Assembly (NCBI GenBank): GCA_951406725.2 | Contig: OX597826.1 | Location: 2,976,001 to 3,040,000, forward strand | Length of the DNA stretch: 64,000 bases | Source: Octopus vulgaris | Taxonomy: Eukaryota | Direction: 5' to 3' | In this document: positions 2,500 to 64,000 of the stretch, one piece after another | How positions within the stretch are numbered: position 1 is the stretch's first letter | Layout of the letters: each line of letters starts with the position of its first letter | The notes under the pieces: model-generated | The model's input: only the letters and a program-made list of their open reading frames with translations | What the model was told of the DNA's origin: nothing | Databases searched by the model: none | Position numbers and translations under genes: made by a program

Positions 2500-2681
2500 A
2501 ATGAGAATTTACGAAAAAAACAGAAGACGAAGACGGGTATGTAAACAACAAACAGGTGTATTAGTTTAACGCACGGGAAGCAAGAAAGTCTTTTACGTTT
2601 CTAGCCTACGCTCTTCAACAGAAAGGGTCGCAGAAATAAACAGAGAGGTAATATCAAAAAAGGGTTACTGGCTAGCGATCT
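2500..2681 (-). mobile_element. Short (TA)n-embedded repeat (family H1) with a minimal hammerhead-like motif; probable Penelope-like pseudo-LTR derivative
   Basis: Reverse complement aligns by eye to 9750-9930 and 44372-44542; contains cttt-CTGTTGA-AGAGC-gtag-GCTA-GAAACGTA-aaag. Confidence 0.65.
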
Positions 2682-2829
2682 ATATATATACACACAGAAC
2701 CTTTTATAATATGGTATGTTGACTTCCACATCTGTTACATTGACATGTATTCCTGTTTATTCTATATTAGTCTATCCCCTCTGTGCGATAAAGTCTAGCG
2801 CAGCTTAAAATGTAACGCTATTAAAAGTA

Positions 2830-9686: not shown

Positions 9687-9742
<56 letters not shown>

Positions 9743-9749
9743 TCGAAAT

Positions 9750-9930
9750 GATAGATCGCTAGCCACTACACATTCTTTATTTTCTCTCCTTGTTTCTTTC
9801 TGTGTTCCTTTTCTGTGGAAGAGCTTAGGCTCGAAACGTTAAAGACTTTTTCACATCCCGAACGTTATACTAATACATCTGTTTGTTGTCTACACCACCT
9901 GTCTTCGTCTTTTTGTTTTGTAAACGTCCC

Positions 9931-9931
<1 letters not shown>
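9750..9931 (+). mobile_element. Family H1 repeat with minimal hammerhead-like motif
   Basis: Between (TA)n tracts; tttt-CTGTGGA-AGAGC-ttag-GCTC-GAAACGTT-aaag at ~9809-9844. Confidence 0.7.
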
Positions 9932-9974
<43 letters not shown>

Positions 9975-10021: not shown

Positions 10022-12706
10022 TGTAGATTTGTGCAGTGTCAGAGTATTGCCAGGTTCTGATTGTGATACTGACCAAAATATTCTTGGGGCCAAATTCAAG
10101 TTCAAGATCCACAAGAAATTTCGTAGTGCAGGCGGACGAGTACCAAAGAAAATTTATGTAGATCAGCTAAAACATCCACGAGTTTTGCAGTTATTTCGGA
10201 AGAGATGCAGCAATGTTCATTTTCAAGGTTCATAGCAATCTTTCCGTGATGGAATATATAAAATGAGATCAGAGTTGTTAGGTTTTAAGAGGAGACAATA
10301 CCGAGACTGGTTTGATTCTAATGATACACTGATAAATGAGATTTTAGCAACAAAGTGGTCCACTCATGAAAAGACTCTTGACCCAAACGTTAAGAACAAA
10401 ATGCAACTAGAGAAGTTTTAAAAGTCTCAGAAAGCAGACATGCATAAGACTCAGGTGGCTTAAAAACACTTGGTGGAGACATTTGTCTGAGGAAGTACAG
10501 GCAGCCTATGACAGGAAAGGCATTACTTTTTTCTATAGTTTATTGCGGCATACTTTTGGACCGAAATCTTCATCATATGTTCCCTTGAAGTCGAAAGAGA
10601 GCACTTTGCATATCTTTTCCGCGATCCGTCTGTAGTGAACATGGATATCATAAACAATATTTCGCATAGATAGTGCAACACATGAATGATACACCTTGCA
10701 TTGCAGAAGTGAATCCGGCATTATGTAAACTGAGATCAGGTAAAGCTCCTGGATTGGATGGTATTCCATTTGAAATGTGAAAGCAGGTGGGGATCATATT
10801 TCATCTGAAATTCATAACCTTATATCTCGAGTTTAGAATGGATAAATGGTATCCTAATATTTGTATACAAGGGTAAGAGCCTGAAAGCAGTATGTAGTAA
10901 TACTAGGGGGCCAACTCGTCTGGCGCATACGGGGAGGATACTTTCAAAGACCATGGTAGATCGTCTTGTTGAGAATGTCTGTCCACATGTGTTTCTTGAA
11001 ATACAGTGTGGTCTCAGAACTGAGCGAGGAACAATGGACATTATATTTTCTGTGAGGCATGTTCGAGAGAAATTCTTAGAGGGACAAATGCCACTATACC
11101 AGGTCTTCATAGATTTAACTAAGACGTTTGACACGGTACACAGGGAGGCACTGTGGAGTGTTTTGTCTAAACTTGTCTGTACAACACATTTTGTGACCAT
11201 TTTTTAGGAACTACACAGAAACATGAAAACTCAGGTAGTCTTTAACTGTGCGCTGCCTCATGAATTTTCGGTCTACAACGGTGTCAAACAGGGAGATATT
11301 CCTTCCTCTAAACTTTTCTCTATTTATTTTGCTGCATTAATTTGGTATGCTTTCAAAGATTGCAACGGGGGAATCGGAATCAGATTTCGGACAGATAGTC
11401 GTAATCTTAATTTGACCTGGTATAACTACAAAGGAAAGGCTTTCAAAACACATGTTAGAGAATTACTTTATGCTGACGATGCAGGTGTGTTGGCGCACTC
11501 AGAGGGGGATATGCAACTTTTAATGGACAGATTGTCCACTGCATGTGTACATTTTGGACTCAGAATTAATCTGGGGAAGACGAAAGTAATGTTTACTCCC
11601 GCGCCAGGACAAACATATTCTGAGCCAAACATTTTTACCTATGGAAGAAGTTTAGCTAGGAAGCCTACTGTCAAGAGATGGTAGTATTGATGCAGTGGTG
11701 TACTATCGAATAAAAAAGCGAAGTGTTGCATTTGGAAAGCTCGAAAAGCGAGTGTGGGCGGATATAGGTTTTTCCCTGAAGTCAAAAATCAGTGTCTATA
11801 AAGCGTGTGTATTGTCTGCACTTTTGTATTCAAGTGAGACATGGACGACTTACAAGCGTCATATAAAAATGCTGGAGAGATTTCATCAAAAGTCCCTGAG
11901 ACGTGTGATAGGAGTCAAGTGGGAATGTTTCATTCCAGATACAGAGGTTTTGTGCATGGGATGTTGCATCTCAGTTGAACAACATGGTATATTGGCTAAA
12001 ATAAGATGGATTGGCCATGTTATGAGAATGAAAGACAAGCATTTGCTAAAGCGTCTTTTTTATGATGAGCTCAACTCTGGTAAGCGATCACAACATAAGC
12101 CGAGGATGAGGTATAATGACTGTGTGAAAGATAACCTGAAGAAACTAGGTATGAACATAGGTGACTGGGAAAATGATGCTCTAGCTCGGAACAGGTGAAG
12201 TGCCGTTAGGACAGATTGCAGTGTCTGGGAGGAAAAGATAATTGAGCACTCTGAATTTAAAAGGGCTTGTCGCAAAGGAACAGTTGGAACTGTAATCAAC
12301 AGGGAACATTGGATATGTATTATACATCGCCGTGTTCTATTGTCAAATGCAGGACACGAGGAATCATATCAAGTCACATGAAAATCATAATGCTCAGAGA
12401 GGTAATGATCGTGGGAACCAACCATATATTATGACTGGTATCGTGTCAAAAAACTAGTAAGACAATATCTGGACTTAAAAGACGTACACTAGTTCACAAT
12501 GATAGTCCTTCAGAATAACATTCCAAAGGGCAAATTTATAGAAGATTCTTGAATAATATGTCACTTGGGTTTTAAACACCGTAAATCAGCAGCTGGTTTT
12601 AAAAGCCATCTAAAGGCTCATCAACAGAGTGACTGGACTGTGTGATGGTGTATGGTATGTGTGTTGATGGGATGGCTATCATCTCTCAAGATGAAGCAAT
12701 CATCAT
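10022..12706 (+). mobile_element. Degenerate 5'-truncated non-LTR retrotransposon (LINE), RTE clade
   Basis: End of APE endonuclease (RVLPGSDCDTDQ), then RT motifs QCGLR..RGTMD, FIDLTKTFDTV, GVKQGD, ELLYADD, GLRINLGKTKVM, then LLYSSETWT and RWIGHVMRM; stops and frameshifts; ends in atcatcat before a microsatellite. Confidence 0.93.
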
Positions 12707-17010: not shown

Positions 17011-18333
17011 ATCAGGTTGGTGCCAAGGTAATGGCTGACTTTAAAGTCTCTATTCAAAATGAATTATCCCATCATTAAGCCTATGTTCATTCGCTAATGT
17101 AGTTTTCATTGCTTTGTAGAATTTCATTCCATCTGTCACCAAGCTTATAAATACTACGCTTCTAAAATTGTTGAGGTTTTGATGTGAAATAGGAACCCAA
17201 CGCATTTTCAACCTTTCCGCTTAATGTCACACTAAGCCCGTTTAAATGGTTCTGTAGTCCCCGAAACAAGTGGTAATCAGAATGAGCAAGGTCTGGAGAA
17301 TATGGAGCATGAAGTAATATTTCCCAACTAATCTCTTCCAAAAGAGATCTTTGGTCAGTCGAGCTGTTTGAGGACGAACATTATCATATTGGAAGATGAC
17401 ACCTTTTCTGTTGACTAAGCGCAGCTGCTTCCTGTTCGAAGCAGCTTTCAAACAGCGAAGTTTACCACAGTGGAGATTAGCAGTAATCGTTTAAATGTTA
17501 TCGAACAGTCCATAATGGAAAACTCCTTCAATTTCCCACCATACACTCAGCAGTATCTTCCTTGGTTGAAGTGTTCATCTTGGTTGTTGAAAAAGTTTTC
17601 CTCCTCGACCAATCAACGATTGGCGTTATTTCACGTTATGGTAAATGATCCACTTCTTATCGCTTGTAACAAGACTTCCTAAAGCTGGTTCCCTAAGGTG
17701 TTGTGAAAGCAATGATAGACAACAAACAACACGCTTTTGCATTTTATCTGGAGGCAGTTCTTGCGGGACCCATTCTCGAACATCACTGAAACTCTTCCAA
17801 TCCTTTTCAGTTGGCGTAGAACAGTTGTACAGGTTGCGTTAAACTGTTCTGTAAGTTCTGTATAATTAGGGGTTGGATTTTCTCTGACAACAGCTTCCAG
17901 CGCTTTGGAATCAAGTTGTTTTGAACAACCTTCTTTTGGTTCCTCTTTCAAACTCAAATCCCCACCTCTGAAGCGAGAAAACCATCTCCTGCAACGTATT
18001 TCACTCACTACATCATCCCCATAAAATCTTTGAAGAAACTTTGCTGCCGAGCTTGCATTGACATGTTTATGAAACTCATAGAGTAAGACAAGTTTAATAT
18101 GACCTTTAGACGGGACGAAAATGGGTGCGAATACAGCAGAAGAGTATGGCCAATACAATCAGAATCTGAAAGAAAAATATAGAAATTTCTCATTGTGACA
18201 GTCTTAAACATTGCAAAAAGCAAAATTTTAAAAATAGCATCCAAAACTCATCAGAAATATTGTATTTCTAAATATCGCAGAGAGACTTATAGAGTAGCAA
18301 CATAATAAAGTGATGGCTTGTTACCAACTTAAT
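17011..18333 (-). mobile_element. Full-length but degenerate mariner (DD34D-type) DNA transposon
   Basis: ~1.3 kb with TIRs atcaggttggt...ccaacttaat. Transposase remnants: HTH (HIKLVLLYEF...RCRRWFSRFRGGDLSL), WVPQEL, FQYDNVRPQTA and PYSPDLA.SDYHLF; frameshifted. Confidence 0.92.
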
Positions 18334-30981: not shown

Positions 30982-32175
30982 GATGGGAACCAACTGCGCT
31001 ACAGAAGTTAGAGACCTCGGGGTTACATCGTATACTCAGAATAATAAGTTTATAGGATCTAATTCTGAACACTGAAGAGTGTTGAATCCTTAAACGAAAG
31101 ACTTAATTATGCGCATTTATTACTCAACTGGCATGAGTACCATTTCAAAAGAGTTATAAGTTTCTATCCCCCAATGTCAAAATCCGGATGTTCCGATAAA
31201 ACAAGCGTACCGGGAGGCTGCCGTTCTCAAGTAGTTATCACCTGGTATCATTTACCATGATTATAGTTAGCAAGGTTAGACAAAAGAATGCCAAGCACCG
31301 AATAAATCCAATAAGATCGAAAACAGGTGATCTAGAGGTCCGAGAGCTAGCTTGGCAGGTGTTCCCTCCCGCTTGCAATAAATAACCAACTGGGGGAGAC
31401 GTCTTTCTGGGGTCGAAACAGCAGAATCGTCACATCTTAGAGAACATCCACGTTTAAGTGGCGATAAACAGTACCTCTTGTTTAGTTCGTACACTGCTTC
31501 TATCTCGAAAAGATGTTTTCTAACGGACTAGATTCTGATAGAGTCGGGTAATGTCTGTGGTTCTGGCTTATGGTTGGTGAGAGTCGAAATATCAGATAGG
31601 ATATTTCGATTCTGTACATAAAGAAAACCAACCCAATGAGTATTTAACGCGTAAGCGACGCGTCCAAACTACCAAATTACGCGTATCTTGAGTAGTACGT
31701 TGCTGGTATACTCTAGGTTGTCAGACAAGTCGTAAATCTCTGGGGTATTGTAATCAAATAAATAATAACATACGACAGATAATCGTCAGCTCATCATAGC
31801 TATTTCTTCCGTCAGTTTTTAATACCAGAATGAGAACATAATATCATTATTTAAAAAAAAACAAAAACTAATTAATAGATTTTTGATGTACACAGATAGA
31901 AATGCGTTTCACAATGGAGTAAAGAGTGAAGAGTATGTTTTAGATAGTCGACTTGTTTTATCGGAACATCCGGATTTTGACATTGGGGGATAGAAACTTA
32001 TAACTCTTTTGAAATGGTACTCATGCCAGTTGAGTAATAAATGCACATAATTAAGTCTTTCGTTTAAGGATTCAACACACTTCAGTGTTCAGAATTAGAT
32101 CCTATAAACTTATTATTCTGAGTATACGATGTAACCCCGAGGTCTCTAACTTCTGTAGCGCAGTTGGTTCCCATC
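30982..32175. repeat. 224-bp inverted duplication (30982-31205 vs 31952-32175)
   Basis: The arms are reverse complements with two mismatches found by eye; spacer ~746 bp. Confidence 0.93.
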
Positions 32176-40644: not shown

Positions 40645-41345
40645 TAATTACAGTTTGAATTCCAAAGGAATTTTTGACCATTCTTCAGCTAAAACAGTCT
40701 CCAATTCCTTTAGTGATGATGGTGGAGGATATCGACTCCTCACTTATCTGTGGTCGCCAGATAAGACGTTCAACTACACTAGAATGTTCCTCGTGCTATT
40801 CAATAACAACTTTAGCTATTTGGATTAAGGTAAATAGCTAACGTTTCCCTCCTGCAACAGTTCCACAAACATAGGATGAATTTGATCAGATAAAATGCTT
40901 AAAAAGTATTGACTATAAATTCTGAAGGGAAACCGTTAGGCCGGCGGATTTCCAAGATGTAGCACAGATCATCAGAGATCCACCTCAATGTTTAACAGTT
41001 GGAAGAACGCAGTCTGGGTTAAATGCTTCTTTTGACTGTCTCCACAAGTATCCTCGGCCGGTGGTCGGAAATAATTTAACTGATGACTCCTCCGACAAAA
41101 TAACATCGTTCCGCCGCTCTAGGGAGCAATTATGTAGGTTTTTACTCCACTCCCTACACTTTGCGACGTTTATTTTTGAAAGTAGTGGTTTTCTGATGGC
41201 AACTCTCCCGTGAAATGTGGGTTTGTGCAGCTCCCAGTAAACAGTTTTTTGTTGTAACTGGGTTCTTGAGGTGGTCATTAATCGCTGCGGCAATTTTGGG
41301 AGCTGTACTTTTGTGATGGATTCGTTATTCTTTTCTCTTTACTTT
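40645..41345 (-). mobile_element. Tc1-like transposase fragment
   Basis: KTVYWELHK..FHGRVAIRKPLLSK.NVAK.REW...VILSEES..LFPTTGR.YLWRQ.KEAFNPDC.LPTVKH then GGSLMI; truncated, no paired TIRs seen. Confidence 0.85.
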
Positions 41346-44371: not shown

Positions 44372-44542
44372 ACAAAAAAAAAAAGTCGCAGACAGGTGGT
44401 GTAAGCAACAAACAGATATATTAGTTTAACGCTCGGAAAGTGAAAAAGTGTTTAACGTTTCGAGCCTATGCTCTTCCACAGAAAGAAGCACACAAAGAAA
44501 CAAGGAGAGAAGAAAAATACAGAATGTTTAGTGGCTAGCGAT
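44372..44542 (-). mobile_element. Family H1 repeat with minimal hammerhead-like motif
   Basis: Reverse complement: cttt-CTGTGGA-AGAGC-atag-GCTC-GAAACGTT-aaac; colinear with 9750-9931. Confidence 0.7.
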
Positions 44543-45235: not shown

Positions 45236-45264
45236 ACTATATATATTAAAAATGTTACCGCGTG

Positions 45265-45455
45265 TGTACCATTGGCGATTTTTTCCCTCCGACTTCCCTT
45301 CCTTGGATCTTTCCTTTTCCTATGTTTCTGACGAATAGCTCCGCTCGAAACTTTAAATCCCCCTTCTTTCTTTTCCTGAGCGTCCAATAACACTATACTT
45401 GTTCCACGTCCTCGAGTTGATGTGTTTTCTCTTTGTGTTTTCATGTTTGTATCAA

Positions 45456-45457
<2 letters not shown>
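45265..45457 (+). mobile_element. Divergent relative of family H1 with a canonical CUGANGA core
   Basis: gttt-CTGACGA-ATAGC-tcc-GCTC-GAAACTTT-aaat, then ctgagcgtccaataacac...ttgt, similar to H1; abuts (TA)n. Confidence 0.6.
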
Positions 45458-45509
<52 letters not shown>

Positions 45510-55143: not shown

Positions 55144-55681
55144 ATTAAAGGAAAGAAAAAGGTCAATAAATACTTGCCATTACATTTTTAATCAATCAAA
55201 TATGAACCATTTTGTTGCACAATGCGTCCCCATCTTTCCTTTAACTTGTAAATACACTCTTCCAGGAACTGAGATGGTTTCATGGCAAAGAATTCATCAA
55301 GGTATCTTTTTACGTCATCCAAGGAATTGAAATTTTTGCCATTAAGACTATTCTGTAGAGACGTGAATAAGTGGAAATCTGAAGGAGCAATATCTGGTGA
55401 ATATGGAGGGTGGGGTAACACATCCCAGACGAGTTGCAGCAATTTTTGGCTGGTCCCCAAGGAATCAAGTGCCGAAAATGAACTTTCTTATCTTCCATTT
55501 TAAAGGGTTACAGAATTAACAAAGGTTATAGGAACATAAACCTTCTTCCACGAAAAGATAGCTTAAACTGTGCTCTAAATGGAAGTGTCGTCAAATCGTA
55601 TTTTATGGACTCAACCATGTTCTAAAATAAGTCAAGAGGTAAGCTACTATAAAACGGCACGAACTTTCCGGACAACCTAAA
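55144..55681 (-). mobile_element. Internally deleted mariner element
   Basis: 5' TIR ttaggttgtccggaaagttcgtgccg; N-terminus MEDKKVHFRHL joined directly to C-terminus WDVLPHPPYSPDIAPSDFHLFTSLQNSLNGK...LKERWGRIVQQNGSY. Confidence 0.9.
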
Positions 55682-58510: not shown

Positions 58511-59300
58511 CACTGTGTGCCAAATTATTAGGCATTTTTTCGAAATAACAGAGTATTTATCCGTTCTAATCCAGATATTTTTTCACTGAATGATGGCAAC
58601 ATCTGCCTGCGCATAATGTACTAAAATATCGTGGATCCGCGCAGATGTAAACAAACGGCGGCCATTTTCATGAAACGGTAACTATTTTACCCTCCTAAAT
58701 TATTAGGCAAGTTCCACATAAAAATGTTATTATGGGTCAAAAACGTGATTTAACATAAAGGGAGAAGTCCACCTTCGTCTCAGAGCTTGGATACACAAAA
58801 AACGACATTGAAAATATCAAAGATCCTGAGAGGAGATCATTGAACCGTGAATAAATTTGTGGAGTCTTCTGCTGTCTGTTCGAGGACTGACAAGGGGAAA
58901 TCGAGGGTTGTTTCCAGGCGTAACCTCTCACGTATAACGAGGGCAGTTGCAAAGAACACGTGTCTGGCTAGTCGAGAAATGTTCAAGCGTTGTGGCATTT
59001 CGAAATCCATCAGGTGTCGCCTCCTGAAGCAGCTAGCCAATAACATAAAACCTGTTACAAGATCCCCTCTGGAATCCAACATGAAGATATATTTTTTTTC
59101 GAAAGTCGGCTTTACTGACGAATGCCGTGCTACCCGGGACAGACCAGATGGGTGGAGTAAAAGATGGATTGAAATTGGCGGAAATTCTCCTCATCGTTTG
59201 AGACGCCAACAAAAGGAAGACGGATTCATGATTTGGGCTGGAATTATTGGAGATAAGTTGGTTGGTCCTTGGAAAATTCCTGAGGGGACAAATTTGTATT
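58511..59300 (+). mobile_element. 5' part of a Tc1-family transposon
   Basis: Left end cactgtgtgccaaattattaggca with internal direct repeat aaattattaggca at ~58697; ATG at 58732; KVGFTDECRATRDRPDGWSK.W...RRQQ..GFMIWAGIIGDKLVGPWKIPEG; truncated. Confidence 0.88.
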
Positions 59301-60444
59301 CATTGCTCAAGCATAATCAGCGGCCTTAGCAACAAAAACCTATGTGAATAAGTCAATTTGTGTACAAATGTGTATCTATGTATATATATGTACACACGTA
59401 TCCCATATGTTGCTACTTGTACGCACGCATTCATAAGAGACTTATTTTTGTGAACGCGTATGCAGTCACGAATGTTACTGAAAATGTAGATATTCATGAT
59501 TTGACTTATGCATATGTATGGATGCATTTGTTTCCATATCGGAAATTGTGTATGAACACTTATCACGTGTAAGCCTTTTCGCGATTGGTGCTGCGTTACT
59601 TCGGAACGTATCCAAGTTCCCTTATAATTATAACCATAAATCTAAAGGTAGAGTCCATGTGGACTGACTGCAATTTTCTCATTATTTCCGATTAGTGGAT
59701 TTCATGTTCAGTATATGTTAACATTACGTTAATATTTACTGGTGACCTGATTTCTTCCACTCTGCAAAATTACCTACCTCCATTTGTCTCAAATCAATAT
59801 GCCTTCTCTCAAATGCTTGCATATTACTTCGGTCATGAGAGAAACATTCCACCAATAATCTTTCATATTATGCGCGATAATGTTCTCTATATTATTGTGG
59901 CTTCCTATAATTGCATTATGATGTTTTGAAGCTCTCTACATACTGCAATATACAGTATACTATCATCCACATCATGTCATACATATATATAGACAAAAGA
60001 TAGATCAAGTTTTCTGATATATACTGATGATGTAGCGGTTTCCTCAGCTTAAATTCTTTAGAAAAATATTTCAGCTGTCGAATCTAGTTTGTAACACGCC
60101 CTGGTCTAATAGGTATTTTCATTACGACTAAACACCCTTCTAAGTGGTTATAGAAGAATACTAGTGTTATCTATTTTTGTTGTGTTTATACGATGCATAT
60201 ATGTATGTATGCTCATCAATGAATATATGTACATGACGCCTACATACATACATACATACATACATGCGTAAGTAGCTAAATACATATACACATATATGTA
60301 TATACCTATGGCGTTCAAATAAGGCCGCAAGCAAATGACTGAAACAGGTAAAAGTATAAAATGATATATATATATATATATATATATGCAGATATATGCA
60401 GATATATGCAAAACATATTTGTGTCTCTCTCACTCGATGTGTAC

Positions 60445-63956: not shown

Positions 63957-63996
63957 TTAGGCTCGAAACGTAAAATAATTTTCTATTCTTGAGCGC
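63957..63996 (+). mobile_element. Truncated family H1 fragment
   Basis: ttaggctcgaaacgtaaa...ttcttgagcg matches the 3' half of the H1 motif. Confidence 0.55.
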
Positions 63997-64000
63997 TATA

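Follow-up and report, generated by a model that had tools for sequence, protein, structure and literature searches.

A family-wide U6 variant of the Penelope-like minimal hammerhead motif in a (TA)n-associated repeat of Octopus vulgaris

The minimal hammerhead ribozymes of Penelope-like elements (PLEs) are recognized by an extra nucleotide after A9, a G10.1-C11.1 pair, and a 15.2-16.2 palindrome (PMC4209133). In metazoans they occur mainly in solitary truncated copies, as does the motif described here (PMC4209133). A6 is present in each of the 56 representatives shown in Fig. S3 of Cervera and de la Pena (2014), whose descriptor demanded it; the first row of this figure, from a Neptune PLE of Acropora digitifera, has the present scaffold (PMC4209133). 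PLE hammerheads are conserved, poor cutters in vitro, and dispensable for insertion in one reconstituted system (PMC4209133, PMC11167929). Four described systems are close to the repeat reported below. (i) The hammerhead of phage Bcep176 likewise has a natural pyrimidine at position 6 of an otherwise intact core, but this is a C in a single phage example that was assayed as active, whereas our repeat has a U in a high-copy retroelement family known from its sequence (PMC3088659, PMC7151607). (ii) The U3-A8 core of the Schistosoma PLE Cercyon is likewise an amplified nonconsensus core that the standard descriptor missed; it is a tolerated compensatory pair swap, whereas U6 comes without a visible compensating change (PMC4209133). 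(iii) In PAc, the Poseidon PLE of Anolis, AT-rich DNA is nicked by the protein, and reverse transcription starts 111 to 118 nt into the open reading frame (ORF); since the ribozyme cuts at 26, our own subtraction puts this start 85 to 92 nt past the cut. Uncut RNA of catalytic mutants is inserted normally, and cutting by the ribozyme requires the protein (PMC11167929). (iv) Animal non-LTR retrozymes resemble our repeat in being short, high-copy, noncoding, and low in GC and in having a type I motif, but they form tandem 150- to 450-bp units with canonical motifs and circular RNA, whereas the U6 copies are solitary, minimal, and 5' variable (PMC7229834). PLE minimal hammerheads and natural U3-A8 and A6C cores are thus known already; what appears to be new is a family-wide U6 in combination with a conserved remaining core.

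The window analyzed here, i.e., the whole stretch of 64 kb of O. vulgaris DNA, has a GC content of 33.6% and is dense in microsatellites. A BLASTN search of the window with the copy at 9746-9932 retrieved matches at 44375-44542 (minus strand, 87% identity, E = 1.5e-46), 2508-2683 (minus strand, 79% identity, E = 8.7e-36), and 63957-64000 (plus strand, 76% identity, E = 0.002). The pairwise identity among the three whole copies amounts to 77 to 88%, and all copies in the window are solitary. The preliminary description of this DNA had listed three copies and one fragment, all of which were found in their places; absent from its list was a sister repeat with a canonical A6 core (Table 1), which is 64% identical over 145 nt to the U6 repeat, has a decayed stem II and palindrome, and ends 3' at a (TA)n tract. 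Judged by its sequence, this sister is PLE-tail-like and may serve as a same-genome A6 comparator for the U6 copies. Neither the 121 ORFs of the window nor a tblastn search revealed a PLE ORF, no host gene was recognizable among these ORFs, and the translation of the repeat had no match among longer proteins.

Table 1. Positions of the repeat copies, the hammerhead motif, and associated features in the window
Feature	Position	Strand	Basis or remark
Copy 2	2500..2683	-	Motif at 2590-2625: U6, U7, broken G10.1-C11.1 pair (GCUA), cleavage base A
(TA)n tract preceding copy 1; likely half of the target site	9689..9739	none	Window sequence
Copy 1, likely a PLE 3' end truncated at its 5' side, with a (TA)n tract on either side	9741..9931	+	5' limit from fit to the loose-end consensus of contigs
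Minimal hammerhead motif, copy 1	9809..9844	+	Stem I, 9809-9812/9841-9844
C3-A9 of copy 1	9813-9819	+	U6 at 9816, N7 at 9817
Extra A after A9 in copy 1	9820	+
Stem II of copy 1	9821-9824/9829-9832	+
G12-A15.1 of copy 1	9833-9836	+
Palindrome ACGU of copy 1	9836-9839	+
Putative cleavage base of copy 1	9840	+
(TA)n tract at 3' end of copy 1, 91 nt after cleavage base	9932..9973	none	Window sequence
Copy 3	44372..44542	-	Motif at 44450-44485: U6, G7, cleavage base U, outer stem I pair lost
CGAGC, complementary to stem II 3' strand and G12	44431..44435	-	19 nt after cleavage base; candidate off-fold
Sister repeat with canonical A6 core CUGACGA at 45328-45334	45262..45458	+	BLASTN; 5' limit approximate
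Diverged fragment with 3' half of motif, without position 6, running off the window end	63957..64000	+	BLASTN

The whole copies have the layout of a minimal type I hammerhead with the core CUGU-N-GA: the six other core letters of CUGANGA are present, and A is absent at position 6. All copies carry GAAACGU-H, that is, GAAA and the palindromic 15.2-16.2 without a stem III, followed by the UH site, and the stem I that closes the motif comprises 3 to 4 bp. A minimal-hammerhead descriptor with position 6 left free matched exactly three sites in the window, which are the three whole copies, and no site in 60 block-shuffled windows. G10.1-C11.1 opens stem II in 11 of 12 aligned sequences, the exception being copy 2. 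The earlier reading of the core, with U6 in all three whole copies, G or U at position 7, the loops GUAG, UUAG, and AUAG, a cleavage base A or U, and GCUA in one copy, proved accurate in these respects; the stem I it had drawn is present in the other copies but lacks its outer pair in the copy at 44372, which reads AAAC there. The extra A after A9 had been regarded as unusual; it is an ordinary feature, since PLE minimal hammerheads are characterized by an extra nucleotide at this place (PMC4209133), and at 9820 it showed no variant among 40 of the 46 pile-up rows listed. Rfam returned nothing at E values up to 10 for 9745-9930 and, for the whole window, no hammerhead among the best 150 of 364 matches, most of which were microsatellite-driven miRNA models. 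A longer stem I (9802-9804 paired with 9852-9854) was considered, as copy 2 has one double change there, and rejected, as the variant frequencies in the pile-up do not match.

Relatives of this scaffold were retrieved from metagenome contigs by an exact-pattern scan in which positions 6 and 7 were free. The scan gave 69 loci in 60 distinct contexts, and all 69 have CUG-N-N-GA-A, a GAGC/GCUC stem II, GAAACGU-H, and A6. U6 was found in none of the 69 primary matches, although the pattern allowed it; one decayed secondary motif within these loci carries U6. The A6 relatives are linked to PLEs in other animals: at 14 of the 69 loci, PLE endonuclease peptides match on the same strand directly upstream, and most of these matches end some 80 to 135 nt before the core. 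The GIY-YIG match of these peptides (E = 0.0018) is under Pfam's curated cutoff, and the CxxxxCxxC linker before GIY-YIG is present in the relatives L004 and L034 only. An inverted piece of the locus's own repeat lies directly upstream in 17 of the 60 A6 contexts; such inverted pieces often accompany PLE insertions. None of the 69 A6 loci ends at TA. In an alignment of the U6 copies with nine PLE-linked A6 loci chosen by hand from the 69, 22 of 38 columns were invariant (23 with one stem I base). Covariation in both stems had been suggested as a check on the fold, and the outcome was divided. Stem I changes on both sides (U-A in the U6 copies versus C-G and G-C in the A6 loci, 7 double-change cells, and 0 of 500 shuffles in a control that ignores kinship, which inflates the result), whereas stem II is invariant and shows no covariation.

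The motif had been assigned to the PLE-type minimal hammerheads, and this assignment is borne out by the Neptune motif of Acropora digitifera, which has the same scaffold save position 6 and stem I. The two share a U-rich 5' flank, a stem I of 3 to 4 bp, the extra nucleotide after A9, G10.1-C11.1, a near-identical stem II, GAAA, the C-G palindrome, and the UH site; in contrast to the Neptune motif, the U6 repeat has U at position 6, a U-A-rich stem I, (TA)n ends, and no ORF in the window (PMC4209133). The U6 motif can thus be read as a PLE minimal hammerhead that fails one defining letter. The supplement text of PMC8557442, in which line breaks could mask single motifs, does not contain six short motifs of the repeat for the octopus Naiad and Hydra-1 PLE families, and the hammerhead motif given there for Hydra-1_Obim differs from the U6 motif and has A6. 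The viral contigs and prokaryote genomes scanned held no further copy of the U6 repeat. A loose U6 pattern matched 120 viral loci, of which one had both stems at 3 bp and was taken as chance. By eye, the 3' untranslated regions of the coral-type loci L033, L004, and L003 are, about 70 nt upstream of the core, faintly like window positions 9741-9775, a likeness that alignment does not establish. The literature searched contained neither a natural U6 core nor a cephalopod example of the U6 motif; a large variant survey outside the scope of this search (Lunse, Weinberg and Breaker, RNA Biol) might include a U6 core. That survey reportedly describes many PLE-linked hammerhead variants. The sole literature match to "A6U" concerns twister ribozymes (PMC11662667) and was discarded.

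To assess variation across the family, we placed contigs of 4 (X1, X8, X12, and X15) of 24 listed public runs, none of which is annotated as RNA, on positions 9742-9930 at 80% likeness; 33,920 contigs were placed, 40 of the 46 variant rows are listed, and changes were also tallied by kind. Several conclusions can be derived from this pile-up. (i) U6 is family-wide. In none of the four runs does A at position 6 reach 2%; all T>A changes of at least 2% belong to positions other than 9816. In run X15, 9816 is free of any change, since no T change is left over in its tally; in the other runs, changes without an assigned position could fall on 9816, namely, a T>C in X12 and X8 and, in X1, one T>G and three T>C. 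The core of two loose-end consensuses likewise reads CUGU. Decay after insertion as the source of U6 was therefore rejected. (ii) The variation falls on positions that a hammerhead tolerates, as had been proposed from the window copies. Position 7 is the only one with four letters among the 40 of 46 variant rows listed (A, 4 to 25%; C, 12 to 15%; U, 16 to 35%; the remainder G). The cleavage base is A (25 to 75%), C (0.3 to 6%), or otherwise U, with no G among the rows listed, and the first base of the stem II loop is G, A, or U. At 18 sites, a minor letter accounts for at least 10%; three of these lie within 9813-9840, all on free positions (p 0.006 to 0.011), and among the constrained positions none of 30 is polymorphic, compared with 18 of 110 elsewhere (Fisher p 0.009), statistics that are post hoc and depth weighted, with subfamilies that are not phylogenetically independent. 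No variant was present at G5, G8, A9, A13-A15.1, and U16.1 among the 40 of 46 rows listed, and the low-level changes (≤3%) at G12, 15.2, and 16.2 sit in CpG pairs. Some changes run counter to strict conservation: in stem I, an outer G>T change reaches 2 to 7%, and a one-base deletion in the U run, which leaves the pairing intact, 25 to 35%. Since the rest of the core is conserved, the pattern of variation argues that catalysis, or at least the catalytic fold, may still be under selection. (iii) U4>A at 9814 also departs from strict conservation; it amounts to 4.1% of the depth in X15 (32 contigs) versus 0.1 to 0.2% in the other three runs and possibly marks a small subfamily with a second core change. 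X15 also has frequent variants of its own (9792, 9880, 9881, and 9890), which suggests amplification after the lineages split, with U6 still kept. (iv) At the core, the depth in X1 adds up to 2.8 million versus 20 to 58 for single long contigs; although summed contig depth is no copy number, it points to roughly 10^4 to 10^5 copies, and four copies per 64 kb agree with this estimate in order of magnitude. The allele profiles of X12 and X8 are near-identical (r 0.998) under different organism labels, and for the most part their cores are less affected by CpG decay than those of X1 and X15.

The ends of the repeat are informative as to its nature. TATATA starts 91, 93, and 85 nt after the cleavage base in the three whole copies, the 3' end thus being fixed at TA; for comparison, a TA run of at least 8 nt follows within 10 nt at only about 2.8% of all window positions, and copy 2 meets a 7-nt TA run inside a compound microsatellite. 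In the contigs, 3' loose ends pass a U-rich stretch into TA, and 5' ends vary. Head-to-tail (3'-to-5') joints were absent among the 15 of 17 contig joints listed, the sole exception being an 80-nt back-jump in a single contig, and all whole copies span the putative cut site. The copies are 3' anchored, 5' variable, and solitary and are therefore like truncated PLE ends and unlike retrozymes; from these features, they most likely represent truncated PLE 3' ends. Retrozyme traits are lacking in the U6 repeat: the window copies and the 15 of 17 joints listed show no tandem units of 150 to 450 bp, and in place of a canonical type I motif with stem III and loop-loop contact there is a minimal motif that has no stem III. 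Several statements of the preliminary description need adjustment in this light. The contigs carry common sequence further 5' of 9748, so that the unit is not one of about 180 bp. That all copies abut (TA)n holds for the 3' ends of the whole copies but not for the 5' end of the copy at 44372, and the fragment runs out of the window before its 3' end; the proposed targeting of (TA)n fits the fixed 3' ends. Of the two readings it had offered, a nonautonomous ribozyme-processed element agrees poorly with the absence of head-to-tail joints among those listed, the copies that span the cut site, and the variable 5' ends, and a solo pseudo-LTR is the better one. The (TA)n insertion bias found for the U6 repeat is not diagnostic of the Neptune clade, because it is common to the Naiad and Hydra clades too. 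PAc resembles the repeat in its AT-rich insertion site, a 3' end about 90 nt past the cut site, and copies that span the cut site; unlike the U6 repeat, it has a canonical core, a demonstrated protein-assisted cleavage, and a known ORF (PMC11167929).

As to catalysis, changes of A6 strongly reduce hammerhead activity (PMC3088659, PMC7151607, PMC9901934). In pairwise mutagenesis, changes of the CUGA turn other than the C3-G8 swap resulted in low activity (PMC9901934), and the natural A6C core cuts slowly in Mg2+ (<0.1 per minute) but readily in Mn2+ (PMC3088659, PMC7151607). Since A6 changes are harmful and the natural A6C core is slow in Mg2+, U6 is, by analogy, most likely a slowed hammerhead core. 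ViennaRNA predictions for the window copies gave probabilities of 0 for stem I and 0 to 0.24 for stem II, and folding z-scores ranged from -1.3 to +0.35; the hammerhead fold is not favored. Six motifs, among them A6 controls, were cofolded, and none yielded the active dimer. A (C/U)GAGC sequence 19 to 23 nt past the cut site is predicted to pair with the 3' strand of stem II (probability 0.44 to 0.51). Besides copy 3, it is found at about 45377-45381 (plus strand) in the sister and about 63990-63994 (plus strand) in the fragment; in copy 1 the site (9859-9863) is mutated. (C/U)GAGC is the majority reading of the pile-up, and C>T at 9859 keeps the pairing as G-U. It is kept in three diverged lineages (copy 3, sister, and fragment) and present in just 2 of the 69 A6 metagenome loci. 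According to these predictions, the downstream sequence may act as a conformational off-fold or off-switch.

Our preferred reading, to which we assign a probability of roughly 0.55, is that the repeats are 5'-truncated 3' ends (pseudo-LTR pieces) of a TA-targeting PLE and that their family-wide U6 hammerhead motif probably cuts slowly. The PLE endonuclease would nick a (TA)n tract, reverse transcription would begin about 90 nt downstream of the ribozyme cut site, and copying would run backwards through the uncut motif, usually halting after some 170 to 250 nt and leaving stubs. A dimeric ribozyme would arise in a full tandem transcript by pairing of two motifs via the ACGU palindrome. A single A6-to-U change would have taken place in the lineage, with selection maintained on the remaining core letters while subfamilies diverged at free positions; the slowed ribozyme would be tolerated or favored, because uncut RNA would be the insertion template. 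The U6 repeat of O. vulgaris would accordingly be of PLE origin, with a dimeric active form and some residual cleavage. A bolder version, which we put forward tentatively and hold to be possible rather than probable, is that U6 is a working natural core. The lineage would have swapped A6 and amplified to some 10^4 to 10^5 copies in several related animals, with catalysis still selected; a brake, relieved by the element's protein or another metal ion and helped by a strand competing for stem II, would leave most RNA uncut for insertion.

With the same PLE origin, U6 might instead have killed the ribozyme, the fold being retained as a protein-binding or folding signal or the core appearing conserved merely because few master copies founded the family. 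Such a loss would be in line with the strong effect of A6 changes on hammerhead activity, with PLE insertion in vitro that is independent of cleavage (PMC11167929), with the cut site spanned by every whole copy, with U4>A at up to 4% in run X15, and with PLE clades that thrive without canonical hammerheads (PMC8557442). We nevertheless consider it rather unlikely. A dead ribozyme accounts poorly for variation on catalysis-tolerant positions: among the 40 of 46 rows listed, position 7 alone has four letters, the cleavage base is never G, and G5, G8, A9, A13-A15.1, and U16.1 are without variant, while the G12 changes stay at the level of CpG decay (≤3%).

Still less probable is a nonautonomous retrozyme or SINE-like short unit, processed by its own ribozyme into circles and mobilized by a PLE in trans. 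The retrozymes described so far have canonical motifs and a tandem arrangement (PMC7229834), whereas the window copies are solitary, no 3'-to-5' joint occurs among the 15 of 17 listed, and 3' loose ends enter TA while 5' ends vary. What speaks for such a unit is the very high abundance of short copies with no ORF nearby, the proposal that animal retrozymes arose from PLE pseudo-LTRs (bioRxiv 10.64898/2026.07.22.740005), and the upstream sequence, which could be a short noncoding body. That the repeat is an unrelated SINE or other repeat with an accidental likeness to a hammerhead is very improbable and largely refuted. The absence of an Rfam match, the weak predicted folding, and the missing A6 would fit chance, but 22 of 38 columns are invariant with the nine PLE-linked A6 loci, the descriptor has no site in 60 shuffles, stem I covaries, and an A6 sister is present in the same window.

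The carrier element is ordinary; a family-wide U6 with a conserved remaining core is not. The U6 repeat on the one hand and A6 in the coral Neptune family and in the sister repeat of the window on the other form a natural pair on one scaffold, and a cleavage result either way bears on the role of hammerheads in PLEs. If U6 cuts, there are more viable natural cores, and searches based on CUGANGA miss whole high-copy families. If U6 is dead, a PLE lineage has spread massively while keeping catalytic letters, which points to a noncutting role of the fold.

A search of the window for tRNA genes found none. Among its other features is a broken LINE reverse-transcriptase ORF at 10818-12195 (plus strand) with RVT_1 matches in two frames, which we take to be RTE-like; it lies 0.9 kb downstream of copy 1, to which it is apparently unrelated. 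Mariner/Tc1 transposase remnants are located at 17682-18158 and 40988-41338 (minus strand, both with Pfam HTH matches) and, as judged by eye, at 55191-55487 (minus strand) and 58844-59326 (plus strand). Furthermore, 30982-31205 and 31952-32175 form a 224-nt inverted repeat that is 99% complementary, with 746 nt between its arms, corresponding to a young MITE-like element.
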